Assembly: GCA_016704435.1 (NCBI GenBank)
Contig: JADJAB010000018.1
Location: forward strand, 3,436-67,435
Direction of reading: 5' to 3'
Length of the DNA: 64,000 nucleotides
Source: Rhodobacter sp.
GTDB lineage: Bacteria > Pseudomonadota > Alphaproteobacteria > Rhodobacterales > Rhodobacteraceae
Below are positions 9,143 to 34,103 of the stretch, piece by piece. Within the stretch, counting starts at the first letter, position 1. The number at the start of each line of letters is the position of its first letter. Made by a program: the position numbers and the translations under genes. The notes below the pieces were generated by a model. That model was not told the DNA's origin and searched no databases. It saw nothing but the letters and a program-made list of their open reading frames with translations.

Positions 9143-9145
9143 GGA

Positions 9146-10000: not shown

Positions 10001-10001
10001 T

Positions 10002-10042
10002 GCCGTGCCCGGGGGGGGTCACCCTTGCGTTCCGGGCACGGC
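10002..10042 (-). terminator. GC-rich hairpin downstream of the GcvT-like gene
   Basis: Perfect 11-bp stem GCCGTGCCCGG / CCGGGCACGGC. No U-tract. Confidence 0.5.
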
Positions 10043-10068
10043 GGGATTGGCGAGCTGACGACGCCTGC

Positions 10069-11166: not shown

Positions 11167-11404
11167 TCCCCTGTCCTTTCAATAGTGTCTCGGGGTTGAT
11201 CGCGCAAAGCCCGCGCGCGCCCCTTTGGTTGAACGTGAGTTTCGAACCGGGCCGCGATCGTGAACCCATCGCGGGCGGATGCCGTGGCGAGCAATCTTTA
11301 CAATCCTCGCCACGGTGTTGATGCGGAGCGGCGGCTATTGACGAACCGGCCGGGCTGCTGCCCGAACCATGGCCATCAAGCGCGATCCGGATCGCCCTTC
11401 AGGC

Positions 11405-13675
<2,271 letters not shown>

Positions 13676-14602: not shown

Positions 14603-15279
14603 TCAATCGGAAGCCACCTTCCGGGAAATACCCGCGCTTTCGCCCCGCGGGCGCCGCCGGCTGAACCTTGCGATTGAACCAAGTGCGTCCAACGCTCCAG
14701 CGGATAGGATTATCGCCGTTCCGACCAGCTTCTCGCCGCCATAAGGCTCGCCGGCCCACAACGACGCGCTGACTGAGGCTGCAATCACTTCGAACATCAA
14801 CAGAAGCGACACCCGACCCGGATCAAGGCGTTGCGCGCCCCAGACCATTGCCCAGGTGATCGGAATCAAGATGAAAAGAGCCGCAGCCGTGGCAAAGGGA
14901 ACCACCGCAAGCAGCTGGTCGGCGTCAGGTGCGGGATATACCGGATTGACCACTATGAAGATTGCCGCGATTCCTGCGCCGAAGACGAAACTCAGCCAGG
15001 TCTTCTCGACCTCGTAGCTTCCCTTGACCTTGTGGGCGAAGGTCGCACCGACCGCAAAGGTGATGCCGGAGCCAAGCCCCATCCACTCGCCCAGCCCGGC
15101 GGCGCGAGGCAGATTGCTGCAATGCAGAGCACCACGACGCTTGCCCAGTCGCCGCGAAATCCGAACGCATCGATCGTCCGCAGCGGAATCCACCAGCAGC
15201 CCCAGGCGGCTGCCGACGCGACCACGACCGCTGACGCATGCAGGTTCGACGATGGGCTGGTCATCAGTTGCGCAGTCAT
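14603..15279 (-). pseudogene. DMT/EamA-family transporter, frameshifted and apparently internally shortened
   Basis: The N-part (VVVASAAAWGCWWIPLR) and C-part (WGAQRLDPGRVSLLLMFEVIAASVSA..LWAGE) are in different frames. Together they give ~225 aa against ~300 expected. Confidence 0.7.
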
Positions 15280-15282
15280 GGT

Positions 15283-15657
15283 TCACCGTCGCTGGTGTTC
15301 GTGGTGCAGAATGGACCGCGTGCCGGCCGAACGACGCCCGGCGCGGAATGGCCCCCCGGCCACGGGCAAGGGCGTTTTCCAATCGAAGATCGGCATTTTA
15401 TGGGCTGTGACATCCACCAACTGCGTGTCGCCCTTCAGCACCGTCGTGATCTTCTTGACCACTGCCAGCGCGTCGGGTCCCTTGATCCAGACGGTCTTGA
15501 ACCCGAGAGGGCGGGGAGGCCGGCGGCCCGGCGGCCGGGGCCGGGCCCCCCCGCCGCGGGGCGGGGAGCCCGGGGCCCGGGCCGGGCGGCGCCCCGGTCC
15601 GGGGGGGGCGCCGAATGCGCGGTGTTCGGTCTCAAGTTCGGATACACCTTTGCCCAT
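15283..15657 (-). pseudogene. second GcvT-like gene with a corrupted GC-only tract and a large internal deletion
   Basis: MGKGVSELETEHRAFGA and GFKTVWIKGPDA align to the N-terminus of the 10069-11166 protein. VDVTAHKMPIFD aligns to its C-terminus (VDVTVEDLPFYD). The middle ~250 aa are missing. Confidence 0.72.
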
Positions 15658-15684
15658 CTCACCGTCCCTTCTGTCGGGATTGAT

Positions 15685-15716
15685 GGGAGGCCTGCATTTT
15701 GACCATGCGGCCTCCC
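15685..15716 (-). terminator. hairpin downstream of etfA copy 2
   Basis: Identical to 8147-8178. Confidence 0.55.
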
Positions 15717-15726
15717 TCGGTTGGTT

Positions 15727-16680
15727 TCAGAAGTGGTTTTGGAGTTCTTCGGCGATTTCGAACATGTCGCCGACGATGCCGTAGCGGGCGATGCTGAAGA
15801 TCGAGGCCTCGGGGTCGGTGTTCACCGCCACGATGTTCTCGACATGCTTCATGCCCCATTGATGCTGGACCGAGCGCGAGACGCCCATCGCGATGTAAAG
15901 CTTGCAATTGGCCGCAAGCTGACCCGACTGGCCGACCTGGCGCGCCTTGGGCAGCCAGCCGTTGTCGGCGATGGGGCGCGAGCAGCCAAGCGTGGCGCCC
16001 ATGCCGCCGGCCAGTTCCAGGAACTGCTCGACATTGCTCTCATCGCCAACGCCGCGCCCGATCGACAGGATGAATTCCGAGCCGGGAATGTCGATGCCGC
16101 CGGCATCGGCGGGCGGCTTCCAGCCCTCATGCGTGGTGGCGATATCGGCGGCAGGGGCTGCCATCGCGGTCACCTTGGGCGCGCCCGAGCCGGCGGCCGG
16201 CTCGAACACGTTGGTGCGGATGGTCAGGAGCACGGTGGCCTTGCCGGGAAAGTCGAGGTCGACCAGCACCTTCTCGGCATAGCCGGCACGGGTGGCGACC
16301 AGCGCGCCGTCCTCAAGCCGCAGCGCCTGCACGTCGGTGGCCAGGCCACAGCCCAGTTTCACCGCGGCGGCCGGCGCGAACGACCAGGCATCGACGCCGT
16401 GCGCGGTGGCGATCAGCGCGGGCTTGCGCGCCGCGACCAGGGCGGTGATCACCGCCTCGGTCAGGTCGGGCTGGAAGTCGTCGCTCGCCTTGATGGCGAT
16501 CACCTCGTCCACCCCCTCGACCGAGAGCGCGCCGACAAGCGCCTGCGGATCGGCGGCGATCAGGACAACCGCCAGCGTGTCGCCCGCCTGCTTGACGCCG
16601 CGTGCGGCGGCGATGGCCTCCAGCGACGACGGGCGCAGCTCGCCCTCGCGCTGCCCGGCAATGACAAGAAGTTCGGCCAT
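15727..16680 (-). CDS. etfA: ETF alpha subunit (copy 2); G-to-R change in the FAD motif
   Basis: Near-identical paralog of 8189-9142. GVSRSVQH instead of GVSGSVQH, from a single base at 15876. Confidence 0.92.
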   Translation of the reverse strand: MAELLVIAGQREGELRPSSLEAIAAARGVKQAGDTLAVVLIAADPQALVGALSVEGVDEVIAIKASDDFQPDLTEAVITALVAARKPALIATAHGVDAWSFAPAAAVKLGCGLATDVQALRLEDGALVATRAGYAEKVLVDLDFPGKATVLLTIRTNVFEPAAGSGAPKVTAMAAPAADIATTHEGWKPPADAGGIDIPGSEFILSIGRGVGDESNVEQFLELAGGMGATLGCSRPIADNGWLPKARQVGQSGQLAANCKLYIAMGVSRSVQHQWGMKHVENIVAVNTDPEASIFSIARYGIVGDMFEIAEELQNHF

Positions 16681-16682
16681 GG

Positions 16683-17467
16683 TCACATTCCCCGCAATTC
16701 TTTGATGATTTCGGCCAGACGCGCCGCCTGTTCGGCCGCCGATCCGGTGATCAGCTCGGCCTTGCCGCGCTCGGGCGCATACATCTTGCGCACCCGCGCA
16801 ACCGGGGCGACGTCGGCCGCCGACAGTCCCAGATCGTCCAGCGACAGCTCGTCCACCGGCTTTTGCTTGGCCTGCTTGATGCCGCGCAGCGAGGCATAGC
16901 GCGGCTGGTTGATGCCAAGCTGGATCGACAAAACCGCCGGGCAGCGGATCGTCATGATCTCTTCCAGCCCGCCCTCCAGCTCGCGCCGCAGCGTCGCGGT
17001 CTTGGCCCCGGCGTGTAATCAAGGTTGCACACCACCGCGGCATGCGGCCAGCCCAGCAGTCCGGCCAGCGCCATGCCGGTGACCGCCGAGCCGAAATCGG
17101 CCGATTGCGCGCCGGTGAAGACCATGTCGGGCTGTTCACGCTCCACCAGCTTGGCCAGAACCCGCGCAACCGCCACGCCATCGGCTTCGGCCAGCGCATC
17201 ATCCCAGACCCGGATGCCGCGGTCGGCCCCCTTGGCCAGCGCGGTGCGCAGCGCATCATCGGCATCCTCGTCGCCGACGATGGCGATCACCACCTCGGCC
17301 GCGTCGCCCGCCGCCTCCTTGATCAGCATCGCCTCTTCGACCGAGAAGTGGTCGAATTCGTTGAGATCCTTCTCGAAGAAATCCGCGTCAACGTCGCGAC
17401 CGTCGTCGCGCATCTCGAATTCGTCATCAAGAAAGGCGACCTGCTTGACCGCCACCAGTATCTTCAT
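16683..17467 (-). CDS. etfB: ETF beta subunit (copy 2), one frameshift in a C-run
   Basis: Paralog of 9146-9931. It has 4 C at 17006-17009 where copy 1 has 5 C (9469-9473). Confidence 0.88.
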
Positions 17468-17468
17468 C

Positions 17469-18875
17469 TCAGCTGCTCCATTCCTGGTCATGTGTCAGTA
17501 AGGCGCGCGCAAGCCGTGTTGCGGCGGCAAAGCGCACCTGCGGCTCGGGATCGTCCAGCAGACGCTCCACCAACGGCAGCGCCAGGCCGCGATGCCCCGC
17601 GAGGATCGCGCGGTTCAACGGATACGGATCCTCGGCCAGATGCCCGAGAACGCCCGGCGGCGCGGCGCGGTTGAAGGCGACAGAGCGGCGCACATCCTTG
17701 TCCGGATGGCGGGCGATCACGTCCAGTTGTGCTGCGGGGGTGCGCGGATTGCGCCCCAGCGCGCCCAGCACGTCGCGATCTTCATCACCCGTCAGACGGG
17801 CGATGGCCGTGTCGGGTGCATCTTCACGCAGGGCCACTCCGGCGCGCACCCAGGGCTGCGGATCGGTGGCAAGCGCCACCAGCAGATCCGGCGGGCAAGC
17901 CGGATTGCGGGCCACGCTGCGCCGCACCTCCGTCTCTGGATCGGCCGCCAGCTGGCCTAGCAGGGCGCGCGGCAGGTCGGGATTGCGGGCGATCCAGCGC
18001 CGCACCCAGACATCCGGGTCGGTCGTCAGCCGTTCCATCAGAGACGACGAAAGCCGACTGCGCCTGGCAAACAGACGACGGACCCTGGCTGAAGGGTCGC
18101 CGGCCTCGTCGAGACAGTCGCCCGAGACGGCCGGATTGCGGACCGCCGCCGCACGCACTCGCTCATCTGGGTCGGCCAGCAGGTTCAGAAGCGCCGCCTC
18201 AGCGATGGCGGGGTTTGCGGCGCGTTTGCGGCGGATCAGCGGATCGGTCGCCGCCTCGGCCTCGGCAAGGATGTCGGGCGGGCAATTCGGGTGCGCCGCC
18301 ACCTCGGCGCGCACCCAGACATCGTCCGCGTTCCAAAGGTGGCGCAGGGTCGGCGCATTGGCCTGCGGTGCTGCGGCGGCGTTGCGCGCAATCTGGGCGT
18401 CATCTTCTGCCGCCAGCCGCGCGATCACCGCAGCGGGCGCATGGGCATTGCCCGAGACCGTGCGGCGCACCTCGACCGATCCGTCCTTTGCCAGCCGCGA
18501 CAGGATCGCGGCATCCGCCTGCGGATGGGCGGCGATGTAGCGGCGCAGGCGGTCATCCGGGCCGCCGCGCAGCAGACGGCCAAGGGCGGTGGTCGGTGTG
18601 GCCGGGTTCTTCACCAGCCGCAGCGCCAGCGGTGCCGAGGCCCCGCGCGACAGCCGGTCGAGCAGATCGGGCGGCGCATAGGGGGCAGAGGCCACGATCA
18701 GCCGCAGGCGCGGGGTTGCCAGGATGACCGGTTCCAGTTCCGACCGTGCCATGGCCCCGGCATGGGCATAGGCCCCAAGCGCCGCGTAGGGATCGCCGGC
18801 CTTCACGAGCCGGTCGATCAACGCGCTGGCGGCAGTCTCAGGCTCCATTTGCCGGTTTTCCGCCAAGCAGTTCAT
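17469..18875 (-). CDS. LRV/HEAT-like repeat solenoid protein (468 aa)
   Basis: About 16 repeats of ~24 aa, consensus VRxxVARNPxxPxxLLxxLAxDPD. ATGA overlap with the upstream Fe-S gene and a 1-nt gap to etfB. Confidence 0.85.
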   Translation of the reverse strand: MNCLAENRQMEPETAASALIDRLVKAGDPYAALGAYAHAGAMARSELEPVILATPRLRLIVASAPYAPPDLLDRLSRGASAPLALRLVKNPATPTTALGRLLRGGPDDRLRRYIAAHPQADAAILSRLAKDGSVEVRRTVSGNAHAPAAVIARLAAEDDAQIARNAAAAPQANAPTLRHLWNADDVWVRAEVAAHPNCPPDILAEAEAATDPLIRRKRAANPAIAEAALLNLLADPDERVRAAAVRNPAVSGDCLDEAGDPSARVRRLFARRSRLSSSLMERLTTDPDVWVRRWIARNPDLPRALLGQLAADPETEVRRSVARNPACPPDLLVALATDPQPWVRAGVALREDAPDTAIARLTGDEDRDVLGALGRNPRTPAAQLDVIARHPDKDVRRSVAFNRAAPPGVLGHLAEDPYPLNRAILAGHRGLALPLVERLLDDPEPQVRFAAATRLARALLTHDQEWSS

Positions 18876-21031
18876 GCCGTCGCTACCGGTTCGGTCGCAT
18901 CGGCATCTTCACCCAGGGACGGCGTGTTATGGGCCAGTCCCATGGCTTCCTGAACCAGTTCGATCAGTTCCATCACCTTGAACCTGCCTTCGTTTCCGGT
19001 GCCCTTGACGCCGTCTTCCATCATGTTCAGGCATTTCGGGCAGTTGACGACCAGCACGTCCAGCCCGGCGATCTCGGCCGCCTCGGCGGCGCGCAATTCA
19101 GCCGGCTTCTTCATTTCCGGGGGATCGGCCAGCCAGATCCGGCCACCACCCGCACCGCAGCAGAACGAGTTGTCGCGGCTGCGGCGCAGTTCCACCAGAT
19201 TGACGCCCAGCCGTTCCAGCACCTGACGCGGCGGCTCCGTCCCGTCGTTGATCCGGCCAAGGTGGCAAGGGTCATGATAGGTCACACGATACTTCAGGCT
19301 GACCGGCGTTGGCACGGTGCCCTCGCGGATCAGCCGCTCCAGCATCGCGCTTGCATGCTCGATCTGGTAGGTGCCGCCGAACTCGGGATATTCGTTCTTG
19401 ATGGTGTTGTAGGTGTGCGGATCGGTGGTGACGATCGACTTGAAGTCGCAGCTGTTCATCAACTCGATATTGGCCTCGGCCAGCGACTGGAACAGACCTT
19501 CTTCGCCAACGCGGCGGACGTCGTTGCCGGCGGTCTGCTCGTCCTCATAGAGGATGCCGAAGTCGATCCCGGCCGCATGCAGGATGCGGGCAAAGGCGAT
19601 CGTCACCTTTTGCGAGCGCGGATCGAATGAGGCGTAGTCACCGACATACCACAGCACGTCCACCGGCTCGGTCCGCGCGTCCTTGACCTCGAAGTCCAGA
19701 TCCTTGGTCCAGCGCGGCCGCTTGCGCTTGGACTCGCCCAGCGAGTTGCCGGATTTCTGCAGGCTCTTCAGCGTCGATTGCAACATCGGGTCGAACTCGC
19801 CCGCTTCCAGCAGCGCCCGGCGCATCTGCACGATCATCGGCAAGTGTTCGATCCCCACCGGGCAGATCTCGACGCAGGCGGCACAGGTCCGGCAGGACCA
19901 GACCGTTTCCGGACGGATCATGTTGACGCCGTCGCCAGAAATGGTGATCGGTCCTTCGGGCATGCTGGCGTGCGACAGCGTGTCGTTGGCCAACTCACGC
20001 AGGCTCAGCACCAGATCGCGCGGCGACAGCGGGTAGCCGGCGGCATTGGCCGGGCAGGCCTCATGGCAGCGCCCGCATTTGGTGCAGGCATCGACGTTGA
20101 CCATGTATTTGTCGGTGAAATCGGTAAGCAGGGAAAAGCCGATCCGCTCGCCCTCGACATCGGCCGTCGGCATGCGCCGCTTGGCCTCGGGGTCGCGCGC
20201 CATCAACGAGCCCATCGCGGTGAAGATGTGCTTCACCTTGGTGTAGGGAACCAGCGAGATGAACAGCAGCGCCAGCATCCCGTGGAACCACCACAGGCTC
20301 ATGCGCAGTTCCGCCGCCCCGTCAGGACCAAGGCCCAGCGCCTTCATCAGATAGGCGGTCGCGGTGCCCACCGGCGCGAACCAGCGGTAATCCCAGACCG
20401 ACGGGTCGCCCTGAAGCCAGACCACGCGCGACGCTTCCAGCAGATAGCCGGTGAACGCAATCGTGATCAGCGTCCAGAGAAAGGCCCAATCCTCGCGCCG
20501 ATAGCCCGAGCGGTCATAGTCCGGGTCGCCGGGCGAGCGGTCGGGGCGGGTATAGTCAAGCCGGGGCAATGCCAGCCATTTGCGCCGATACATCATGTAG
20601 AGCAGCCCGCCGATCAGCGCGACGCCCGCCAGATCCATCACCGTCCCGAAGGCCAAATAGAACCAGCCATACCAGAAGTGGATGCCAAACGGGCCCAGGA
20701 TGTCCTGGTCCAGCGTGATGGTGCTGGTACCGATGAAGAGCAGCGCAAAGCCGAAGAACAGCCAGCTGTGGCTGATGCCCGCCGCCCGCGCGCGCCGTTT
20801 GATGGTGCGATGGGACAGCACCGTCGTCACCATCTGACTGAGCCGCGGCCAGAATGGCGACCAGGCACCCGAGCGCACACCGCGACGGTATTTGCGGATA
20901 TGCGTCCAGACCCCGTAGAGGAAAACACCGATCGCCAGAAATCCGACTATGTAGAAGCTGACGATCATCCAGGTCGGGAAATCCTGAAACAGGATACGTG
21001 TCACGTCCTTTGGGTTGTGTTCGGGAAACAT
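18872..21031 (-). CDS. membrane-bound Fe-S oxidoreductase, FadF/YwjF/EMO type (NarI-like TM domain, two 4Fe-4S, two CCG domains)
   Basis: N-terminal TM helices, CTKCGRCHEACP and CRTCAACVEICP, YHDPCHLGR, CCGAGGG and NCPKC. Confidence 0.88.
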   Translation of the reverse strand: MFPEHNPKDVTRILFQDFPTWMIVSFYIVGFLAIGVFLYGVWTHIRKYRRGVRSGAWSPFWPRLSQMVTTVLSHRTIKRRARAAGISHSWLFFGFALLFIGTSTITLDQDILGPFGIHFWYGWFYLAFGTVMDLAGVALIGGLLYMMYRRKWLALPRLDYTRPDRSPGDPDYDRSGYRREDWAFLWTLITIAFTGYLLEASRVVWLQGDPSVWDYRWFAPVGTATAYLMKALGLGPDGAAELRMSLWWFHGMLALLFISLVPYTKVKHIFTAMGSLMARDPEAKRRMPTADVEGERIGFSLLTDFTDKYMVNVDACTKCGRCHEACPANAAGYPLSPRDLVLSLRELANDTLSHASMPEGPITISGDGVNMIRPETVWSCRTCAACVEICPVGIEHLPMIVQMRRALLEAGEFDPMLQSTLKSLQKSGNSLGESKRKRPRWTKDLDFEVKDARTEPVDVLWYVGDYASFDPRSQKVTIAFARILHAAGIDFGILYEDEQTAGNDVRRVGEEGLFQSLAEANIELMNSCDFKSIVTTDPHTYNTIKNEYPEFGGTYQIEHASAMLERLIREGTVPTPVSLKYRVTYHDPCHLGRINDGTEPPRQVLERLGVNLVELRRSRDNSFCCGAGGGRIWLADPPEMKKPAELRAAEAAEIAGLDVLVVNCPKCLNMMEDGVKGTGNEGRFKVMELIELVQEAMGLAHNTPSLGEDADATEPVATA

Positions 21032-21130
21032 CCGGAGCGTTCCTTTGCGTTTATATCGGCGCCGTACTGGCACCGGATGTCAGGGAAATGGCGGCCAGGC
21101 ACTCTCTCGCATGGCCGCCAGAGTGTCAGA

Positions 21131-23344
<2,214 letters not shown>

Positions 23345-23372
23345 TTATCGCCGAGTCTGGCGGCGTGTCGTG

Positions 23373-23945
23373 TCAGCTATTCGTTGCGGTCGGATCCTGC
23401 GTGGCGAGCAGAAGCGCCGCGCCAAGAAACTTGCGCATGTCGTCGAAGACGGCCGGCTTCTCGCCGCGCCAGCGGTCGTGCAGCCGGAAGGGCGCGGAGG
23501 CGCCGTTGGCCGCAGCATCAAGGCAGGCGGCCGCTTCGCGCGCAAAATTCAACGTCCGGCGGCGCATGTTGGCCTGATAGGTGTCCCAATGCTTGGCCTC
23601 CATCCGCAGATGGAACAGCGAACTGCGGGCACGCCGGGCAATGGTCATGCCCTCGACCCAGTCCGGCACTGCGCCCCACAAACGAAGGGCATGGGCATAG
23701 CGCCGCCGCGCCAGGGCCTCGTTCCCGGTCAGCCGTGCCGCCATCCCGGCATTGGCAAGGCTGGTCGCATAGCGCGGATCGCTGCGCGAAAGCCGCAACA
23801 TCGCCAACCACCAGGCGCGCCGCCACAGGCGCGCGGCGCGGTGGCTGTCGCCGTTGCGCAGCGCGGCATGCGCCTGCTCCTGCAGCCGTTCCCAGCCCAG
23901 GTCACAGCCACGCCACCCCGCAGCACGCGCTGCGGCAAGCCCCAT
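23373..23945 (-). CDS. conserved hypothetical TPR-like protein (start uncertain: 23945, 23981 or 23993)
   Basis: Helical segments RAARLWRRAW, DPRYATSLANAG and ARRRYAHALRLW. It sits between the ABC ATPase and tmd on the same strand. Confidence 0.65.
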   Translation of the reverse strand: MGLAAARAAGWRGCDLGWERLQEQAHAALRNGDSHRAARLWRRAWWLAMLRLSRSDPRYATSLANAGMAARLTGNEALARRRYAHALRLWGAVPDWVEGMTIARRARSSLFHLRMEAKHWDTYQANMRRRTLNFAREAAACLDAAANGASAPFRLHDRWRGEKPAVFDDMRKFLGAALLLATQDPTATNS

Positions 23946-23952
23946 ATCGGGC

Positions 23953-24658
23953 TCAGGCGCCAAGATAAGCACGTCGGACATGGTCGTTCTCATGAAGATC
24001 CCTCGCTTTCCCCTCAAGCACGAGGTCACCGGTTTCGAGCACATAGGCGTGGTCCGCCAGTTCCAGCGCCAGCTCGGCGTTCTGTTCCACCAGGATCACC
24101 GCAACGCCCTGCTTGCTGATTTCCTCGATGATCACCGCGATCTCTTCGACGATGACCGGGGCGAGGCCCATCGACGGCTCGTCAAGCAGCAGCAGTCTGG
24201 GCTTGGCCATCAGCGCGCGGCCGATCGCCAGCATCTGCTGCTCGCCGCCGGACATGGTCTTGGCAAACTGGGTGCGCCGTTCGCGCAGGCGGGGGAAGCG
24301 CTGAAACACTGCCTCCAGATCGGCGGCAACCTGCACCTTGTCGCGCCGCAGGAAGGCACCGGTGCGCAGATTTTCCTCAACGGTAAGGTCGGGGAATACC
24401 CGCCGCCCTTCGGGCATGGGCGATGCCGCGGGCGACAATTTTCTCGGGCGGCAGCCGGTCGATCCGCTGACCATCAAACCAGATCTCGCCGCCTGACAGT
24501 TTCGCAAGACCCGAGATCGCGCGCAGCGTCGTGGTCTTGCCGGCGCCATTGCCGCCGATGATCGTGACGATCCCGCTTGCCGGGGCCTGCAGCGTGATAT
24601 TCCGGATCGCCGAAACCTTCTGGTAGTTTACCGATGCGTCCTTGACCTCAAGCAACAT
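23953..24658 (-). CDS. HAAT-family ABC ATPase (LivF-like), frameshift near 24415
   Basis: GGNGAGKTT, MSGGEQQMLAIGRALM and LLLLDEPS motifs, split over two frames. Confidence 0.9.
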
Positions 24659-25442
24659 GGCGCGCACCTCCAAGATAGGCCTCGATCACCTTGGGATCGT
24701 TGCGGATATCCTTTGGCGCGCCTTCGACCAGAAGCTGGCCGAAGTTCATCACCGTGATCCGGTCGCACAGGCCCATGATCGCCTGCATGTCATGTTCGAC
24801 CAGAAGGATGGTGACACCACGGTCACGGACCTTGAACATCAGGTCCATCATCTGCCTGGTCTCTTCGGGGTTCATGCCGGTGAAGGGTTCGTCCAGCAGC
24901 AGCATGTCGGGTTCGGCCGCCAGTGCCACGGCCATGCCAAGCGCCCGTTGGTGCCCATGCGAAAGCTCGGCCGCCAGTTCGTGCGCGCGCAGTTGCAGGC
25001 CAAAGAAGGCCAGCGTTTCGCGTGCCTTCGCCTCGTTCTCACGGGCGGCCTTCGCCCCGGTGCCCAGGATCGCGCCCAGCAGCGTGGGGCGTTGGTGCAT
25101 GTAGCGACCGACCATGACGTTTTGCAGCAGTGAGAACTCCTGAAACAGGGTCGAGTGCTGGAAGGTCCGCACCAGCCCCCGCGCCGCCACCTGGGGCATG
25201 GTCAGCCCCGAGATGTCCTGCCCCTTGTAGAGCACCCGCCCCTCGGTCGGCGTGTAGTAGCCGCTGACAACGTTGAACGTTGTGGTCTTGCCGGCACCAT
25301 TGGGGCCGATCAGCCCGTGGATGGTGCCGGGCTGGACCGAGAAGCTGAGGTTGTTGATCGCCGTCAGCCCGCCGAAGCGCATCGTCAGGCCGTTGACCTC
25401 CAGCAGCGGTCGCGCGCCGGCATTTGTCCGGTCATCCTTCAT
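24648..25442 (-). CDS. HAAT-family ABC ATPase (LivG-like)
   Basis: FGGLTAI, GPNGAGKTT, LLLDEP and VEHDM motifs. Confidence 0.93.
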   Translation of the reverse strand: MKDDRTNAGARPLLEVNGLTMRFGGLTAINNLSFSVQPGTIHGLIGPNGAGKTTTFNVVSGYYTPTEGRVLYKGQDISGLTMPQVAARGLVRTFQHSTLFQEFSLLQNVMVGRYMHQRPTLLGAILGTGAKAARENEAKARETLAFFGLQLRAHELAAELSHGHQRALGMAVALAAEPDMLLLDEPFTGMNPEETRQMMDLMFKVRDRGVTILLVEHDMQAIMGLCDRITVMNFGQLLVEGAPKDIRNDPKVIEAYLGGARHVA

Positions 25443-26434
25443 TTGTTGCCCCCTTGGTCTTGGACACCACAGGAACGGCGGGCTTGCGCCCGAAGATCGC
25501 GCCGGATCTCGGCACCAGGCTTTCAAGGCCCTTTGGCAGGAACAGGACCGATGCAATCAGGATCAGGCCGTAGATCAGCGGCCGGACCTGATCCATCCCC
25601 AGTTCGCGCAAGACAACGTCGTTGAGGATCGTCAACACGATCACGCCCAGGATCGGGCCGTAGAACGTGACCGTACCCCCGACGATCGCCCAGGTCAGAA
25701 CAAAGACCATCTCTTCGACATTGAAGCGGTTGGGATTGACGGTTCCGATGTAATGCGCCAGCAGCCCGCCCGACAAACCGGCAAAGCAAGAGGCGATGAC
25801 AAAGGCCAGCGTGCGGTAATGGCGCGCCTTGACCCCCCACCGACTCAGCCAGCTTGTCCTGCCAATGGACGGCGTGGAAGATCAGCCCCACCGGCGAGCG
25901 TTCAACCCGCCATATGATCCAAAGCGAGACCGCGACCACAATCAGCGCCAGGAAGTAATAGTTGACCGGTTCGAAGAAATCGATCTTCAGCCCGCCGATC
26001 TCGATGGTGTCAAAGCCCGGTATCAGCTTGATCCCCTTCGGGCCACCGAACGGGTCGCGGAACTTGATCCAGATCAGGCGCATGATTTCGCCTGCTGCAA
26101 AGGAGCCGATCAGGAAATAGAACCCCTTCATCCGAAACAGCGGAAAGCTGAGAATAAGGGCGAAAACCCCGGCCACTGCGGCCCCTGACAGCATTGCCAG
26201 CGGCACGGGGAAGCCCGCACTCTTGGTCAGAAGCGCGCTGGCGTAGGCGCCGACGCCCATGATGACGACATGCGCCAGCGACCACTCGCCGGTCAGCGTC
26301 AGCAGCCGGTAGCTGGACACCACCAGGACGTTGATGGTCAGAAAGACCAGCACCTCTTGCTGCGAATAGCTCAGAACAAAGGGCAGCACGACCAGCGCGG
26401 CTGCAAGCAGGATCCATGCGATTATCTTCAGCAT
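25432..26434 (-). CDS. HAAT-family ABC permease (LivM-like), frameshift near 25835
   Basis: Hydrophobic protein with GEWSLAH, GGPKGI and AIVGGTVTFYGPILG. The indel lies in a C6 run. Confidence 0.88.
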
Positions 26435-26448
26435 CCGCCTGCCCCCCC

Positions 26449-27318
26449 CTACGCCCGCTCACGGGTGCCGAAAAGCCCGGTGGGCTTCACGATCAGCACC
26501 AGCAGCATCAGCGTCAGCCCGACGATGTCAGCCATCACGCCGTCGACGAACGTCGTGACGAACGTGTGGACAAAGGCGTAGACGACCGCCGCCACCACGG
26601 CCCCCTCAAGGCTGCCGACACCACCGACGATGATGATGATGAAGGCGGTGACGATGACCGAATGGCCCATGTAGGGATAGGTTCGCACCAGTGGCGCGGT
26701 CAGCGCGCCGGCCACACCCGCCAGCGCCGCGCCGATGAACATCGCGATCCGCGCCGTCTGGTTGATCGAGATGCCCTGCAGCGCCGCCGCTTCAGGATCC
26801 TGGGCGCTGGCCCGCAAGGCCCAGCCGAACCGGGTCTTCTTCAGGAACAGCCAGAGGGCGAAAAGCAGCCCGATCGTCGCCACGATCACATAGAGCCGCT
26901 GGAGCGGCAGGCTGACGCGGTCGGAGAACTGGATGATCTCCTGCGTCGAGGGCGGGATGTTCTCCATCCGCACACCGAAGATCAGCGCCGCCGATGCCTG
27001 AAGCACCAGAAGAAAACCGATCGACGCGACGAGACCGCCAAGCGGGTTGTCTCGGAGCGGCCGGAAGAGCGCCCACTCCATCAGGATGCCGACGAGGCCG
27101 ACGAACACCAGACCGGCGGCAACGGCGACCAGGAAGGGCATGTTCCAGTCACCGTAAACGGCTACCACCGCATAGGCGCCCAGCATGTAAAGCTCGCCAT
27201 GGGCGAAGTTGATCACCCCCATGACGCCGAAGATCAGGACCAGACCGACCGCGACCAGCGCCATGTAGCTGGCCGCATAGGTAGCGTTCAGAATCGTCTG
27301 GGCAAAAAGATCCACCAT
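26449..27318 (-). CDS. HAAT-family ABC permease (LivH-like)
   Basis: GLVLIFGVMGVINFAHGE, ALRASAQDPEAA and IIVGGVGS motifs. Confidence 0.93.
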   Translation of the reverse strand: MVDLFAQTILNATYAASYMALVAVGLVLIFGVMGVINFAHGELYMLGAYAVVAVYGDWNMPFLVAVAAGLVFVGLVGILMEWALFRPLRDNPLGGLVASIGFLLVLQASAALIFGVRMENIPPSTQEIIQFSDRVSLPLQRLYVIVATIGLLFALWLFLKKTRFGWALRASAQDPEAAALQGISINQTARIAMFIGAALAGVAGALTAPLVRTYPYMGHSVIVTAFIIIIVGGVGSLEGAVVAAVVYAFVHTFVTTFVDGVMADIVGLTLMLLVLIVKPTGLFGTRERA

Positions 27319-27405
27319 CAGGCGCCCCCCCCCCGTTTGGCGGAAAAGCGGCCGCTCCGGTGGCGGCACCGGACCGAAGCGGCTGTTGACCTGCGAGCCT
27401 GGGGA

Positions 27406-28710
27406 TCAGGCACGCTGGTAGTACATCGGGCCGAGGGCATCCATGTGCTTGATCAGAAGGTCGCCATGCTTGTCGTACCACTCGGGGATGCTCTTGAAAT
27501 CCTTGATGACCGCCTTGCCGTCTTCGATCACCACCACCGGCCAGTTGCCGACCAGAGCGTTGTCGATCCCGAACAACTCCTTGCCCCACCAGTCGGCTTC
27601 ACCGAAGGCATGCAGACCCTTGCCGCCCTCCTTCATCGCCGCCAGGACGTCGCCGGGTTCCACCGACCCCGCCTTCTCGGCCGCCGCCTTCCACAGATCC
27701 ATGACCGAGGCGTATTCCCACGACACGGCACCCCATTGGTTGGGATGGCGCTTGCTGTACTCGGCGTAGAACTCGTTCGGCTTCTGGAAGTTGATGAAAT
27801 CGGCATTGAGCCCCGGATCGTCGAAATCGGGGAACTGGAAGAGGAACCCTTCCATGAACTCCTTCGACGTCTTGGCGACGATCTGGTCGTAGAAATCGGC
27901 CGTGCAGGAGATGATCTGCCCCTTGTAACCCTGCTGGAACAGCTGTTCACAGATCGGATGGACGTAGTCTGAATAGCAGGTGTCAAGGCAGATGATCTGC
28001 GGATTGCTTGACATCAGCCGGGTAACGATCGGCGCGAAGTCGGTCGTTGCCGGATCGAAGAACAGGGTGTCGTCAAGCATCTCGATGCCGGCCGCCTCGA
28101 ACGCGGCGAGATAGGTCGCGACCGACGGCAGGCCAAGCGCATCCTCCTGCGCGCACATCACCGCGGTTTTCAGCTCGGGCTTGTTCTCGGCCAGCCACTG
28201 GATGCCGGTGACGTTGTAGATCGGGTGCACCTCGCACGGGGCCAGCAGCGTTGCCGTTTCGGGCGACAGGTCCGACGGCAGCAGCGTCGTGCACAGCATC
28301 CCCTCGCGCTCAGCCAGTTGCTGGACACCGGGCCACGGATCCCCGCCCAGCATCATGATCATCTTGACGCCGTCTTCTTTGATCAGCTTGGTCGCGCCGG
28401 CGCGCCTTGCCCGCATCGTATTCGTCGTCATAGGGGAACGGAATTCGACCATATGGGCCTCGCCGGCGATATTGACGCCGCCGGCCGCATTGACCCACTC
28501 GGCCCAGATGAGGCAGCCGTCGAGACCGGGCTTGCCCCAGGCGGCGACTTCGCCGGTCAGCGGCGCGAGAAAGCCGATCTTCACGGTCTTGTCGGCGGCG
28601 CGGGCAGCGCGCGGTACCAGCGATGTCGCCGCCGCCGTTCCCGCAAGCGCGGCCGCTCCGCGCAACACCCTGCGTCGGGTCAGACCATTCTTGAACATGT
28701 TCGCAAGCAT
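27406..28710 (-). CDS. HAAT-family substrate-binding protein with Tat signal
   Basis: GGAGG RBS, TRRRVL twin-arginine leader and KIGFLAPLTG. Two compensating indels near 28400-28445 scramble YDDEYD. Confidence 0.9.
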   Translation of the reverse strand: MLANMFKNGLTRRRVLRGAAALAGTAAATSLVPRAARAADKTVKIGFLAPLTGEVAAWGKPGLDGCLIWAEWVNAAGGVNIAGEAHMVEFRSPMTTNTMRARRAGATKLIKEDGVKMIMMLGGDPWPGVQQLAEREGMLCTTLLPSDLSPETATLLAPCEVHPIYNVTGIQWLAENKPELKTAVMCAQEDALGLPSVATYLAAFEAAGIEMLDDTLFFDPATTDFAPIVTRLMSSNPQIICLDTCYSDYVHPICEQLFQQGYKGQIISCTADFYDQIVAKTSKEFMEGFLFQFPDFDDPGLNADFINFQKPNEFYAEYSKRHPNQWGAVSWEYASVMDLWKAAAEKAGSVEPGDVLAAMKEGGKGLHAFGEADWWGKELFGIDNALVGNWPVVVIEDGKAVIKDFKSIPEWYDKHGDLLIKHMDALGPMYYQRA

Positions 28711-28750: not shown

Positions 28751-28786
28751 ACCAGTTTGAACCAATTCGCGACCAAATTAGACCAA
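28751..28786. promoter_or_regulatory. candidate FadR/GntR operator array (four phased half-sites)
   Basis: ACCAG/ACCAA at 28751, 28761, 28772 and 28782. A further AATTGGTCTA at 28911. Located between the divergent ABC operon and the regulator. Confidence 0.5.
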
Positions 28787-28989
28787 GATCAAACTCCACA
28801 GCCTGAACCCCGCCATTGGCAGATGGCTCAATGCCCAATGTAGCGCCAGATTTCGCCAATCTCAACACAAACGACATAAAGTTGCTAAGTTTGGCTTGAT
28901 GGCGAAATATAATTGGTCTATTTTGGGTGAAATTGATACAAGCGAAAATGAATCAAGTGTTGATTTCAGAGGCTTGGGAGATCGCACCA

Positions 28990-29892
28990 ATGACCAATCA
29001 TCCCGCACCGTTCCCGCGGACGACCCGATTTCGGACCGATTGCAGGCCACTTCCCAGCCAGTTCGGCCGCGATTCCGGCCTCACGCGGACTTCGATCGCG
29101 CGCGGCCTCGGGGGCAGACCATCGCCAGATCGGCCGATTCCCCCGCCATGGGACGCGGACGGCGAAATACCCAAGCCGGTCTCGGCCAGGACGCGGCAAC
29201 TGGCCGACCGCCTGTTCGCCGAGATCGTCAGCGGTGCACACAGTTTCGGAACCCGCCTCCCGGCTGAGCGCCTGCTGTCCGAGCAGCACGGCCTGTCGCG
29301 CAACACGGTCCGTCAGGCGCTGGGGTTGCTAGAGCAATTCGGGGTCGTCCAGCGCCGCATCGGCAGCGGCTCGGTGGTCCGCTACCGGCCCGAGCCGCAG
29401 GCCGATCCGCCCCCGGCTCTCGCGCCGAGGCTGCCCAACGCGCTGGACCTCAGTGAGCTCGGCGACATCACCAGCCCTCTGGAGCTAGGCGTCGTCCGCT
29501 CGATCATCGAGCCCGAGATTGCCCGCCTTGCCGTGCTCAACATGACCTCACGCGACATCCAGAGAATCAAGGACACACAGTCCGAGATCGACCAGGTCAC
29601 GGTCGACGGCGAAAGGTTCTCGGCGCTCGATGATTCTTTCCGGATGCAGCTTGCCGAGGGCACGCACAACCCGCTCCTCGTGGCGATCTATACGATGATC
29701 AATCGCGTCAGCAATGACGCCGGCTGGTCGGTGCAGCGGCGTCGGCGGCTGACGCCCGCACGGATCAGGGAATACAAGCTGCAGAACCTGTCACTCTGCG
29801 AGGCGATTGAAAGCCGCGACATCGATTCGGCCGTTGAATTCATGCGGTTGTTGCTGGCCGAGTTCCATCAGGACCTGATGCGCGGCGCGTGA
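28990..29892 (+). CDS. GntR/FadR-family transcriptional regulator (start uncertain)
   Basis: wHTH LPAERLLSEQHGLSRNTVRQAL plus a C-terminal FCD domain (LAEGTHNPLL). Confidence 0.88.
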   Translation: MTNHPAPFPRTTRFRTDCRPLPSQFGRDSGLTRTSIARGLGGRPSPDRPIPPPWDADGEIPKPVSARTRQLADRLFAEIVSGAHSFGTRLPAERLLSEQHGLSRNTVRQALGLLEQFGVVQRRIGSGSVVRYRPEPQADPPPALAPRLPNALDLSELGDITSPLELGVVRSIIEPEIARLAVLNMTSRDIQRIKDTQSEIDQVTVDGERFSALDDSFRMQLAEGTHNPLLVAIYTMINRVSNDAGWSVQRRRRLTPARIREYKLQNLSLCEAIESRDIDSAVEFMRLLLAEFHQDLMRGA

Positions 29893-31178
29893 TCCTCGAA
29901 TGTAGACGCGCCGCTGGCCTGCCGGTCCAAACGCTGGTCCCACATCTGACCGCAGGCCCGCATGTGACTCAGCAGCAGGTCGCCGTGCTTCTCCCACCAG
30001 CCGAGGATCGAGCGGATTTCGACGATCCGGGCGCGCCCGTCCTGAATGCGCACCACCGGCCAGGAGCCGACCAGCGCGTGGTCGATACCGAACAGCTCGC
30101 GCCCCCACCACCGCGCCTCGCCGAACACATTGCGACCGACCCCGCCCAGCTTCATCGCCGACAGGACAACCGTCGGCTCGACGGTCTGGATGCGCTCAAC
30201 GGCCTTGCGCCACATCTCGAGAATGGCGCAATATTGCCACGACACCGCGCTCCACTCGCCCGGAAAGCGGCGATTGAATTCGGCGTAGAACTCGGCCGGG
30301 CGCGGGAAGTCCACGCTGGTATCGCTCAGCGCCGGATCGTCAAAGTCCGGGAACTGGAAGATGAAACCCTCCATGAACTCGCGGCTGGTGCGCTCGATCA
30401 GCGCTGGATAGTTGTCGCAGGTGCAAGACAGGATCTGCCCCTTGAAGCCTTTGCGGTAGGCGGCTTCGGTCAGGGCGTGGACGAAGGGCTCATAGGCGGT
30501 GTCCCAGCAAAGGATGTCGGGCTCGGCGCTCAGCAGCGCATCGACCATGGCATCAGGATCCTCCGGCGCGCCGGTATAGAGTAGCTCCTTCACGACGGTC
30601 ATCCCCGCCGCCGCAAATGCAGCCCGATAGGTGGCAAGCGAGGGCAGCCCCAGCGCGTCGCGTTGCGCGCACAGCGCCACGCGACGCAGTTCGGGCCGGT
30701 TCTCGGACAACCAGTCGACGCCCGTCACGACATAGATCGGATGCACCTCGCAGGGTGCGATAAGGTAGGGGGTGTCCGGCGACAGGTCACTTGGCAGCAG
30801 AGTGGTCGCCAGGATCCGCGACCGGGTCAGGAAATCGCTGATCGCCGGAACGGGATCACCGCCCAGCATGAGAATCATCTTGACCCCCTGCTCCAGCACC
30901 AGGTGCTTGGCACCCAGCAAAGCGCAGGCTGGGTCATACTGGTCGTCATAGGCGACAATCTCGACCCGACGGCGTTGGTCGCCGATCCGCAGGCCACCCT
31001 CGGCATTAAGCCGATCGGCCCAGATCCGGCACCCCTCAAAACCCGGACGCCCCCAGGCCGAAGCGGCACCCGTCAGCGGCGCCAGCACGCCGACCTTGAC
31101 CGCCTCGCGCGCGCGCATGGCATACTTGGGAAGGCTCGCGGAAACCGCGAGATCGGCGCCAAAGGAATAGATGCTCAT
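29868..31178 (-). CDS. substrate-binding-protein paralog without a signal peptide
   Basis: GAGG RBS. Paralog of 27406-28710 (shared APCEVHPIY, CAQxDALGLPS and FMEGFxFQFPDFDDP). The N-terminus MSIYSFGADLAVSASLPKY has no Tat or Sec features. Confidence 0.85.
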   Translation of the reverse strand: MSIYSFGADLAVSASLPKYAMRAREAVKVGVLAPLTGAASAWGRPGFEGCRIWADRLNAEGGLRIGDQRRRVEIVAYDDQYDPACALLGAKHLVLEQGVKMILMLGGDPVPAISDFLTRSRILATTLLPSDLSPDTPYLIAPCEVHPIYVVTGVDWLSENRPELRRVALCAQRDALGLPSLATYRAAFAAAGMTVVKELLYTGAPEDPDAMVDALLSAEPDILCWDTAYEPFVHALTEAAYRKGFKGQILSCTCDNYPALIERTSREFMEGFIFQFPDFDDPALSDTSVDFPRPAEFYAEFNRRFPGEWSAVSWQYCAILEMWRKAVERIQTVEPTVVLSAMKLGGVGRNVFGEARWWGRELFGIDHALVGSWPVVRIQDGRARIVEIRSILGWWEKHGDLLLSHMRACGQMWDQRLDRQASGASTFEDHAPRIRS

Positions 31179-31333
31179 GATATCCTCGTGGTATCGATGG
31201 CGCGGGGTGTGGTTGTGGCAGGCTCGGCCATCAACATCGTTCGGTTGCCGGCTTCGGAATAGGGGACGGTCGCAGGTGCGCATGAACGCCTGCCGGCGTC
31301 GTGTCAACTGGCAGTTTGGACGGGACTATTGCA

Positions 31334-31363: not shown

Positions 31364-32336
31364 GGCGTTGTTGCAGAACTGCCGCGTCAAGCGTGACTTC
31401 GCCTTTCCCTTTGGGTTTAGCTCACGCGCAGGATCTCGGCGGTGCCGAGTGCCTCGATCCGACTTCATACGTGATATCCGGTCCAGCGTTTCCGGAATGC
31501 CCGGCCATGGTGCCTTGTGGCCCGTAGCGTTTCGTTCCTGGCCGTTGCCGCCGGGCAATCTTCTTTCCAGGGCCGGCCGTTCTTGCGGATGGGGATGATT
31601 GCGGTGGCCCGGTGGTCGATGATGGCCGTGTGGCAGCGACGGGTGTCATAGGCGCCATCAGCGGTCACCGTGCCGATCACTTCGCCCTCCGGGATCTGAT
31701 CCAGCAGTTCCGGCAAGACCGGGCTGTCACCGTCGCTGCTGGAGGTGAATTCCACCGCCCGGATGTCCGACGTGGCCGTGTCCATGGCCAGATGCACCTT
31801 GCGCCCCCTCTCACGGTTTGCTGGCAAACCACGAGAGGGCGCCACCGCCGAGGAACTTGATCCCGGTGCTGTCCACCAGCAGATTGAGAGGGCCGTTGGC
31901 GCGCCTGCAAGGGATCTGGACGGCCGGTGTTTTCTGCCGCCGACACAAGGTCGAATAGTCCGGCACCGTCCAATCGAGGTTCGCCAAACCCGGCATGCTG
32001 GCCACCATGCCTGTCGTCTGCCTGAGCGGCAGTTTGAACAGGACCTTGATCGTCAGGCAAAACCGGATCGCGGCATCGGAAAACACCGCAGGGCGGCCAG
32101 GGCTCCCGTCATGCGGCGCAAGCCAGGTCATGTCATTGTCCAGCCACCCTCTCACGCATGCAGGCATGCGTTGCCGGGCAACGGATCAACAGCGACCCGC
32201 GCTTCCCTGGCGCCACGTTGTAGCCGGACCAGTTCGTCGTGCGGAAGCGGGTAGGTGATGGCTTGCTCATCCACCCCGTCTAACCGCATGGATTCACCAT
32301 GTGAATCCTTGGCAGTCAGAGTTCTGCAACAACGCC
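31364..32336 (-). mobile_element. IS5-family (IS903-like) element, degenerate, copy 2 (inverted relative to copy 1)
   Basis: Perfect 17-bp IRs GGCGTTGTTGCAGAACT / AGTTCTGCAACAACGCC. The interior is nearly identical to 7142-8118, including shared frameshifts. Confidence 0.92.
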
Positions 32337-32508: not shown

Positions 32509-34023
32509 TCAGAACCCCACGTCCGGCCCACCGTCGCCCTGCCAGGCCCGCGCAAGGTTGCCGAAGCGGGTAAAGCGGCCCTCGAACGACAGTTCCACCG
32601 TGCCGATCGGCCCGTGGCGCTGCTTGCCGATGATCACCTCGGCCTTGCCGTGGCATTGCTCCATCATCTGCTGCCAGGCAGCCATCTTGTCCATCTCGTG
32701 ATCCGCCGGCTTTTCCCGTTCGCGGTAGTATTCCTCGCGGAACACGAACATCACCACATCGGCATCCTGCTCGATCGACCCGGATTCGCGCAGGTCGCTC
32801 AGCTGCGGCCGCTTGTCCTCGCGGCTTTCCACGGCGCGGCTCAGCTGACTCAGCGCGATCACCGGGATGTTCAACTCCTTGGCGATCGCCTTCAGCCCCT
32901 GGGTGATCTCGCTGACTTCCTGCACCCGGTTGGCTTCCGACGATTTGGCGGTGCCCTTCAGCAACTGCAGGTAGTCGATCACCAGCACATCCAGCCCATG
33001 GGTCCGCTTCAGCCGCCGCGCCCGTGCTGCGACCTGGCTGATCGGCAGCGCCGGCGTGTCGTCGATGTAGAGCGGGCAGGTCTCCAGCTGCTTGGCGGCA
33101 TCGACGAAACGGCGGAATTCGCCTTCGGTCATATCGCCGCGACGAATTTGTTCCGATGGCACTTCGGAGGCCTCGGACAGCACGCGGGCCGCCAGCTGCT
33201 CGGCACTCATCTCCAGAGAGAAGAATCCCACGCAGCCGCCTTCGACTGCGCCTTCGCTGCCGTCGGGCTTGCGGCCGCGGCGGTAGGCCTTGGCGATGTT
33301 GAAGGCAATGTTGGTCGCCAGCGAGGTCTTTCCCATCGACGGCCGCCCGGCCAGGATCAGTAGGTCGCTTTCGTGCAACCCGCCCAGCTTCTTGTCCAGG
33401 TCGGCCAGCCCGGTCGCGATGCCCGCCAGCCCGCCGCCGCGCTGATAGGCCGCGTTTGCCACATTAACCGCGTCCGTCACTGCCTTGAGAAAGCTCTGAA
33501 ATCCGCGCTCGGCAACGCCCTGCTCGCCCAAGCGGTAGAGCCGCTGCTCGGCTTCGGTGATCTGTTCGCGCGGCTCGGATTCCATGTCCACCTTGGCGGC
33601 GCGATCGGAAATGTCGCGCCCCAGCTGGATCAGTTCGCGCCGCACCGCGAGATCGTAGATCATCTGCGCATAGTCGCGCGCCGCGAAAGAGGAAATCGCC
33701 GATCCGGCAAGCCTCACCAGATAGGCCGGGCCGCCCAGATCCCTGAGCCCGGAGTCGTCCTCCATGAAGGCTTTCAGCGTGACCGGCGAGGCAAGCGCGT
33801 TCTTCTGGATGCGGGCTGAAGCGATCTCGAAGATGCGGGCATGGACAGGATCGAAGAAATGCTCGGATCTCACCAGAGCCGCAATCCGGTCATAGATGTC
33901 GTTATTGACCAGAATGGCTCCCAGAAGCTGTTGTTCTGCCTCGATATTATTGGGCAGCGCTTCGGCCCCGCCGCCGTCTTGCGTGGCCGGAACCGTTGGC
34001 CGCAGTGTTGCAATCTCACTCAT
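32509..34023 (-). CDS. dnaB: replicative DNA helicase
   Basis: PNNIEAEQQLLG, GRPSMGKT, IDYLQL, LSQLSR and DLRESGSIEQDADVVMF motifs. Confidence 0.98.
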   Translation of the reverse strand: MSEIATLRPTVPATQDGGGAEALPNNIEAEQQLLGAILVNNDIYDRIAALVRSEHFFDPVHARIFEIASARIQKNALASPVTLKAFMEDDSGLRDLGGPAYLVRLAGSAISSFAARDYAQMIYDLAVRRELIQLGRDISDRAAKVDMESEPREQITEAEQRLYRLGEQGVAERGFQSFLKAVTDAVNVANAAYQRGGGLAGIATGLADLDKKLGGLHESDLLILAGRPSMGKTSLATNIAFNIAKAYRRGRKPDGSEGAVEGGCVGFFSLEMSAEQLAARVLSEASEVPSEQIRRGDMTEGEFRRFVDAAKQLETCPLYIDDTPALPISQVAARARRLKRTHGLDVLVIDYLQLLKGTAKSSEANRVQEVSEITQGLKAIAKELNIPVIALSQLSRAVESREDKRPQLSDLRESGSIEQDADVVMFVFREEYYREREKPADHEMDKMAAWQQMMEQCHGKAEVIIGKQRHGPIGTVELSFEGRFTRFGNLARAWQGDGGPDVGF

Positions 34024-34103
34024 CTGATACCCCCAAGGCACACTCCCGAGAACCCCGGTTCCCTATGGCAAAGCCGGGTGCGGGCTGGCAAGTCTGATAG
34101 GTC

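Follow-up and report, generated by a model that had tools for sequence, protein, structure and literature searches.

Signal-less paralogue of a Tat-exported binding protein as a putative methylamine sensor for a FadR-type repressor in Rhodobacter sp. and other Alphaproteobacteria

The DNA analyzed here (the window) is a stretch of 64,000 nucleotides (nt) from Rhodobacter sp. (contig JADJAB010000018.1). It encodes, on the minus strand at 29868-31178, a 436-amino acid (aa) protein of the Peripla_BP_6 family that has no export signal and is a paralogue of a twin-arginine translocation (Tat)-exported binding protein encoded at 27406-28710 (minus strand). We call the signal-less paralogue SBPcyt and the exported transporter paralogue SBPtat. 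The SBPcyt gene converges on fadR (29124-29892, plus strand), the gene of a FadR-subfamily GntR regulator, which is itself divergent from an operon encoding SBPtat, the LivHMGF permeases and ATPases and a trimethylamine dehydrogenase (TMADH). Because SBPcyt lies beside this transporter/TMADH operon and is linked to FadR, the best reading is that of a transporter-derived amine sensor that works with FadR. The pair would then act as a two-protein intracellular methylamine sensor that switches the operon, a reading to which we assign a probability of about 0.55. With slightly less confidence, and at just under even odds, the pair may represent an undescribed bipartite switch that is widespread in Alphaproteobacteria, in which a substrate-binding protein (SBP) paralogue serves as the detachable sensor of FadR, and the first transcriptional sensor to be identified for intracellular trimethylamine (TMA) or a related methylamine.

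Genes of the window were identified from its list of open reading frames (ORFs) and by searches against Pfam, NCBIfam and PDB sequences. For the family survey, 80 loci from alphaproteobacterial genomes were scanned with their 10-kb flanks using the window proteins. Export signals were called with a motif and hydropathy script, not with SignalP. Population variation was assessed on ~99%-identical contigs from four independent wastewater/sludge metagenome runs.

The Pfam match of SBPcyt (PF13458, Peripla_BP_6, E = 3.5e-44) aligns residues 70-424 of the 479-aa ORF with positions 2-342 of the 343-position model, and SBPcyt and SBPtat share 52% identity across 402 aa. A Shine-Dalgarno sequence, GAGGA, can be read at 31183-31187 (minus strand), 5 nt ahead of the ATG at 31178. 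The N-terminus of SBPcyt, MSIYSFGADLAVSASLPKYAMRA, lacks an RR motif, a hydrophobic core and a lipobox Cys. SBPtat, in contrast, starts with GLTRRRVLRGAAALAGTAAATSLVPRAARA followed by AD, which comprises an S/T-R-R-x-F/V-L motif (here within TRRRVL), an h-region and an AxA cleavage site (ARA, cleaved before AD). An earlier note on this DNA, made by a model from the letters and their ORFs, had described a full-length paralogue of the exported protein with its own ribosome-binding site and no export signal; each of these features is confirmed here. SBPcyt is not encoded with permease or ATPase genes: it is followed by the convergent fadR, and livH follows SBPtat only.

No upstream start that would restore a signal peptide was found. 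The 43 in-frame codons upstream of the ATG, up to a TTG at 31307, are hydrophilic and contain no hydrophobic segment, and in several SBPcyt orthologues the reading frame is closed by stops 0-5 codons upstream of the start, which leaves no room for a hidden signal. An upstream start is therefore ruled out by these two findings. A truncation of the 5' end by the nearby insertion sequence (IS) is likewise ruled out, as the element ends at 31364 and the 436-aa form is found throughout the family.

The binding proteins of the 80 loci fall into two clean classes, with ~72 Tat-type copies followed by livH and 41 signal-less copies that are not. The motif S/T-RR-x-F-L is present in essentially all livH-linked copies (three are borderline, though visibly RR-containing), and a Tat motif, hydrophobic core or lipobox Cys was detected in 0/41 SBPcyt orthologues. 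The absence of a signal in the SBPcyt family is far beyond chance. A database search retrieved more than 100 close homologues, many of which are exactly 436 aa long and share the N-terminus of SBPcyt. They come from Paracoccaceae, Hoeflea, Kiloniellales, Hyphomicrobiales and other groups; carriers include Tabrizicola soli, Hoeflea sp. TYP-13, Roseovarius mucosus DSM 17069 and Primorskyibacter marinus.

We consider it very improbable that SBPcyt is nevertheless extracytoplasmic, exported by Tat hitch-hiking or from an unrecognized start, and provides the transporter, or a membrane sensor, with a second receptor. Tat hitch-hiking occurs for other proteins, and residues 1-22 of SBPcyt (MSIYSFGADLAVSASLPKYAMR) resemble the leftover h/c-region of the signal of its paralogue, with the remnant …AVSASLPK… kept at the N-terminus. 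The missing RR motif and the stops just upstream of the start speak against export, as do the relaxation in SBPcyt of surface positions that are conserved in the exported clade and an evolutionary rate that, compared within one set of 30 genomes, is about double that of SBPtat. Moreover, no membrane sensor gene is conserved beside SBPcyt in the 80 loci.

The pairing with FadR extends well beyond the window. A FadR homologue lies convergent and immediately downstream in 34/41 SBPcyt copies, spread over several bacterial orders, and elsewhere in the cluster in four more. The convergence with a 25-nt overlap reported in the earlier note is exact from the ORF coordinates (29868-29892, with fadR ending at 29892 and SBPcyt at 29868). 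The identical overlap recurs in 12 loci of the clade of the window; elsewhere the gene ends range from 54 nt apart to 28 nt overlapping. Around 35 transporter loci, mostly from methylotrophs (Methyloceanibacter, Methyloligella, Hyphomicrobium), contain neither SBPcyt nor FadR. In three Roseovarius-like loci (L052, L054 and L068), SBPcyt is located directly upstream of the SBPtat/transporter operon on the same strand, with an alanine/sodium symporter-like gene upstream in L052.

In a neighbor-joining tree, the exported proteins form a single tight, monophyletic clade and the signal-less proteins occupy several deeper lineages, which indicates an old duplication. Mirror-tree comparison of pairwise distances gave r = 0.87 for SBPcyt and FadR, against 0.53 for SBPtat and FadR and 0.39 for SBPcyt and SBPtat; the partial correlation of SBPcyt and FadR controlling for SBPtat was 0.84. 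As the distance pairs are not independent, these correlations are suggestive only. Judged by these comparisons, SBPcyt is an ancient, conserved and intact gene in a conserved arrangement rather than the product of a local truncation.

The AlphaFold2 model of SBPcyt (pLDDT 88.6, pTM 0.86) displays a type I periplasmic binding protein fold, a two-lobed Venus flytrap, with residues 1-22 and 430-436 disordered. Searched with Foldseek, it matched UrtA, LivJ/LivK, aromatic-acid binding proteins and AmiC with probability 1.00, at 13-21% identity. A total of 101 alignment columns are ≥ 95% identical in both the SBPcyt and the exported clade, with Trp, Tyr, Phe, Asp and Glu abundant among them; they include W42, W53, Y81, D108, D131, E144, H146, Y149, W156, D174, D255 and Y257. 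Such a shared aromatic and acidic core is what would be expected of a cage around a protonated methylamine, and we infer that these residues line the pocket. Twenty-nine positions, including the stretch 202-210, are conserved in the Tat clade and variable in SBPcyt, and the reverse applies to only five. Together with the faster evolution of SBPcyt, this pattern fits a release from docking to the permease. Trp225 (window ~30504-30506) is invariant in all 42 signal-less proteins, whereas the exported clade has Leu in 99% of its members; this exchange could tune the affinity. A similar contrast between signal-less and exported proteins is seen at Pro231 (Asp in the exported clade) and Ala235 (Pro).

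Trimethylamine or a related methylamine is the likely ligand, because the operon contains a clear TMADH orthologue (21131-23329, minus strand), the last mapped gene of the same-strand cluster. Its residues 5-732 align over the full length with residues 2-729 of the Methylophilus methylotrophus enzyme (1DJN/2TMD) at 1290 bits, its substrate specificity being a prediction from this similarity.

FadR combines a GntR winged helix-turn-helix (wHTH; PF00392, E = 2.2e-14) with an FCD domain (PF07729, E = 2.8e-19). FCD regulators normally hold a divalent metal with three conserved His residues, with or without Asp/Asn, and bind carboxylates through this metal (PMC7674646). At the corresponding positions, aligned to DgoR, PdhR and CGL2915, the FadR of the window has D-R-Y-L. 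In 39 aligned homologues, including 37 with an SBPcyt partner, the three triad positions are occupied by His in 4, 1 and 18 sequences, respectively; the first His is absent in 33/37 partnered regulators, whereas homologues without a partner keep D-H-Y-H. Since FCD domains are unlikely to bind an amine, an outsourcing of recognition to a separate protein would be chemically sensible.

No perfect palindromic operator shared across the loci was found. Alignment of 12 fadR/transporter intergenic regions did reveal a conserved block with tandem, direct TTGGT half-sites spaced 10-11 nt. In the window, candidate operator O1 consists of three TTGGT half-sites on the minus strand (ACCAA on the plus strand) at 28761-28786, with spacings of 11 and 10 nt, and sits 51-76 nt upstream of the SBPtat start codon. 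Candidate operator O2 (TTGGT-N6-TGGGT-N5-TTGAT, 28913-28937, plus strand) lies within the block conserved in the 12 loci, upstream of fadR. The two flank the only promoter-like site, TTGAGA-17-TACATT (28837-28865, minus strand), which is directed toward the transporter operon and was identified by a consensus scan alone. Across 27 intergenic regions, the TTGGT pentamer was observed 143 times against 30 expected, and 20 tandem pairs were counted there versus 0 in 41 regions upstream of SBPcyt. The spaced repeat TTGGT-N6-TTGGT has four matches window-wide, two of which fall inside the 466-bp fadR/transporter intergenic region.

In the proposed mechanism, an ancient loss of the twin-arginine n-region from its signal would have left SBPcyt in the cytoplasm. 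It would have retained the ligand pocket of its paralogue, presumably binding imported trimethylamine or a close methylated amine, and would serve the neighboring FadR-type repressor, which has a degenerate FCD effector site, as its ligand-sensing subunit. In the absence of ligand, FadR is proposed to occupy the tandem TTGGT repeats on either side of the divergent promoter and to repress the operon for SBPtat, LivHMGF and TMADH, and probably fadR as well. Ligand-closed SBPcyt would then bind FadR and remove it from the DNA as an anti-repressor, so that the operon is induced. With the opposite polarity, apo-SBPcyt would act as a co-repressor; we favor the anti-repressor, although the data do not decide between the two.

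The earlier note had further ascribed a long Pro/Arg-rich N-terminal extension to FadR. The ORF is indeed open back to an ATG at 28990 and a GTG at 28927, and since no ATG, GTG or TTG occurs between 28990 and the wHTH, the extension stays open in the window; it proved, however, specific to this assembly or strain. FadR orthologues begin ~18 codons before the wHTH, at M-x-x-P-x-PPW[DE]xD. The DNA upstream can be aligned in 90%- and 83%-identical relatives, but it runs in other frames there and the protein is not conserved. In the population contigs, 29124-29126 reads ATG instead of the GCC of the window and base 29128 is missing (three of the four runs, the fourth having no coverage), which restores the canonical start MNRPIPPPWD…. 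An extension that functions as a domain is ruled out by these orthologue starts, the lack of conservation and the population ATG at 29124. The FadRs of the clade of the window (L001-L019, L049, L053 and L061) share the motif PPW[DE]xD(G/x)(E/x)I.(K/H)P immediately ahead of the wHTH (29145-29178 in the window); in Roseobacter-type orthologues the conserved N-terminus is another one, …TSQI(I/L)(A/T)(S/T)HS. That the PPW[DE]xD motif might be a docking peptide for SBPcyt is pure speculation.

The fadR start is one of several small indels that distinguish the window from the population contigs (24414, 25833, 26442, 28399, 28436, 28440 and 29124-29128). Those at 25833 and 24414 coincide with frameshifts in livM and livF, and applying the population edits restores a LivM of 333 aa and a LivF of 240 aa. 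The SBPtat gene carries three compensating indels (28399, 28436 and 28440). Since the contigs differ exactly at the frameshifts and at the fadR start, the assembly or strain is locally damaged; either the assembly is in error here or the locus has genuinely decayed in the strain. The same damage, together with an IS5-family element 186 bp upstream, could suggest that SBPcyt is itself a decaying duplicate in an eroding locus. This is highly implausible: an intact ORF is found in the window and in each of the 41 orthologues, down to ~52% identity and with ~100 invariant residues, SBPcyt has zero indels relative to the population contigs, and the neighboring frameshifts are not found in the independent metagenome assemblies. 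A pseudogene is effectively refuted by this family-wide conservation.

A further point against a relic gene is that SBPcyt is transcribed in situ according to wastewater metatranscriptome contigs, a type of library in which contamination by DNA is possible. Several parts of the gene are represented in these contigs (29846-31259), which reach 81 nt into the 5' leader (to 31259), and TMADH is covered strongly (21000-23487); the fadR body and most transporter genes are left uncovered.

Several observations weigh against the two-protein sensor. SBPcyt and FadR are not obligatory partners, since L052, L054 and L068 carry SBPcyt with no FadR within 10 kb and four loci carry a FadR homologue without SBPcyt. 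Joint transfer of the adjacent genes and differences in rate may account for part of the mirror-tree correlation. Three partnered FadRs (L017, L019 and L023) retain the first His, and Escherichia coli FadR, which has no His triad either, still binds an effector of its own (PMC7674646), so that a degenerate metal site is no proof of outsourced sensing. With only five SBPcyt-specific conserved positions, there is no obvious new conserved docking surface. The exchange at Trp225 may mean an altered specificity, and Roseobacter-type loci have no TMADH within 10 kb, because of which the ligand may differ between clades. In the assembly or strain studied here, with the fadR start missing and two transporter genes frameshifted, the system may be inactive.

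Some of these observations also agree with a cytoplasmic but non-regulatory SBPcyt, which could buffer a volatile, membrane-permeant amine or chaperone it to TMADH, or feed back on the ABC transporter ATPases, with FadR sensing a metabolite on its own and being no more than a neighbor. A precedent for feedback is NrtC, whose SBP-like C-terminal domain acts on ABC ATPases. The ligand-pocket-like core common to SBPcyt and SBPtat, the loci without an adjacent FadR, the scarcity of SBPcyt-specific surface positions and the same-strand position of SBPcyt just ahead of the transporter operon in L016 and L018 are all compatible with such a role. We nevertheless regard it as unlikely, as SBPcyt is almost never found beside catabolic genes and lies tail-to-tail with the regulator in most loci, co-varies far more strongly with FadR than with SBPtat, and is partnered with FadRs that have mostly lost the canonical effector site. 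The proposal of the earlier note, an amine-sensing switch derived from the transporter gene, thus stands in part: the conserved gene, its linkage to FadR and the TMADH context support it, while the FadR extension as part of the system and a specific kinship with AmiC find no support.

The comparison with AmiC, the sensor of the amidase operon of Pseudomonas aeruginosa, comes from the same note. No AmiC chain was among the matches of SBPcyt in phmmer (E ≤ 1e-3) or profile (E ≤ 1e-5) searches. In Foldseek, the AmiC structures 1QNL, 1QO0 and 1PEA ranked 36-45 (TM ~0.65-0.77, 18% identity), behind UrtA, LivJ and aromatic-acid binding proteins. Orthology to AmiC is ruled out on these grounds. What remains is an analogy, namely a signal-less type I (LivJ-like) fold in the cytoplasm that exerts, as proposed for SBPcyt, ligand-dependent control over a separate regulator. 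AmiR is an ANTAR RNA-binding antiterminator, whereas the adjacent conserved partner of SBPcyt is a DNA-binding protein of the GntR/FadR type with an FCD domain and not an ANTAR protein (no search of the whole window for ANTAR was made). Furthermore, amiC and amiR are co-transcribed while SBPcyt and fadR are convergent and overlapping, the AmiC ligand is an amide while that of SBPcyt is likely a methylated amine, and SBPcyt, unlike AmiC, can be matched to an obvious recent-family paralogue that belongs to the neighboring transporter.

A closer taxonomic parallel is NasS-NasT of the alphaproteobacteria Paracoccus denitrificans and Bradyrhizobium, in which a regulator is bound by a cytoplasmic homologue of an ABC binding protein and released once that homologue senses the substrate of the transporter (PMC3795266). 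Like SBPcyt, for which a cytoplasmic location is predicted, NasS is a homologue of a transporter SBP; it differs in belonging to another, NrtA-like class, in having an ANTAR antiterminator as partner and in being co-transcribed with it. In the nitrile hydratase systems of Rhodococcus, the AmiC-type cytoplasmic proteins NhlC/NhhC have been proposed to relieve a DNA-binding repressor (NhlD/NhhD) when amide is supplied. These binding proteins work with a DNA-binding regulator, as we propose for SBPcyt and FadR, but the regulator is not of the GntR/FCD type, the host belongs to another phylum, no paralogous transporter lies alongside, and how the system works is likewise only partly established.

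Among FadR/FCD repressors (DgoR, LldR, NanR, PdhR), the FadR of the window shares the wHTH and all-helical FCD architecture, with PDB matches that include PdhR, DgoR and CGL2915. It differs from them by the loss of the conserved His triad, by the N-terminal PPW[DE]xD motif and by the proposed effector, a protein-ligand complex instead of a carboxylate. With their repeated, GGT-containing half-sites, the candidate TTGGT repeats recall NanR, which binds a (GGTATA)3 repeat (PMC8012715). For PlmA of cyanobacteria, a GntR-family regulator, contacts with protein partners (PipX-PII) are reported (PMC5083789), comparable to the contact proposed for FadR, although the partners and the signal are unrelated. 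In the literature searched, we found no description of a TMA-responsive transcription factor or of a pair of SBP paralogue and GntR/FadR regulator, and none of relevance on transporters or regulators associated with TMA dehydrogenase or on 'AmiC-like' sensors.

Methylated amines such as TMA and dimethylamine are major nitrogen and carbon currencies in marine, wastewater and gut environments, and are climate-relevant volatiles. If the two-protein sensor is correct, the recycling of a transporter receptor as cytoplasmic sensor, as in AmiC and NasS, would extend from RNA-binding antiterminators to the extensive GntR/FadR family of DNA-binding repressors, and a regulator family that recognizes carboxylates through a metal would have been re-tooled for a cationic amine by outsourcing recognition. 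Binding protein, repressor and TTGGT-repeat operator would also constitute a ready-made amine biosensor module. The current annotation of SBPcyt, 'ABC transporter substrate-binding protein', is probably wrong as to its function.

The remainder of the transporter operon is located on the minus strand downstream of SBPtat, with the permease and ATPase genes spanning 23953-27369. It comprises the permeases LivH (26449-27369) and LivM (25432-26434, frameshifted) and the ATPases LivG (24648-25556) and LivF (23953-24673, frameshifted). The end of livF is overlapped by the gene of a 223-aa protein without a Pfam match (23373-24044, minus strand), an uncharacterized, tightly linked component of the transporter system. 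Its homologues (33-72% identity) are encoded downstream of the transporter genes in nearly all 80 loci, among them methylotrophs that have neither SBPcyt nor FadR.

Beyond TMADH, a larger methylated-amine island extends over 8189-21073 on the minus strand. It encodes a TMADH paralogue (11405-13663) that is ~65% identical to the TMADH orthologue and may be a dimethylamine dehydrogenase, a GcvT-like aminomethyltransferase (10069-11166), two electron transfer flavoprotein (ETF) alpha-like proteins and one ETF beta-like protein, and a 733-aa HdrD/GlpC/DgcB-like Fe-S protein (18872-21073). The gene of this Fe-S protein always follows TMADH in related loci.

On the other side of SBPcyt, the IS5-family element (31364-32336, minus strand; Pfam DDE_Tnp_1 and DDE_Tnp_1_5) bounds the upstream region of the gene and lies outside the system; its other neighbor is dnaB (32509-34041). 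It has perfect terminal inverted repeats of 17 bp, GGCGTTGTTGCAGAACT. Two ORFs (31811-32167 and 31465-31845) each hold part of the transposase, whose DDE domain ends early, covering Pfam positions 32-139 of 200. The metagenome contigs end ~30 nt inside the element, where the depth rises, and these breaks and the raised depth indicate that it is present in multiple copies.

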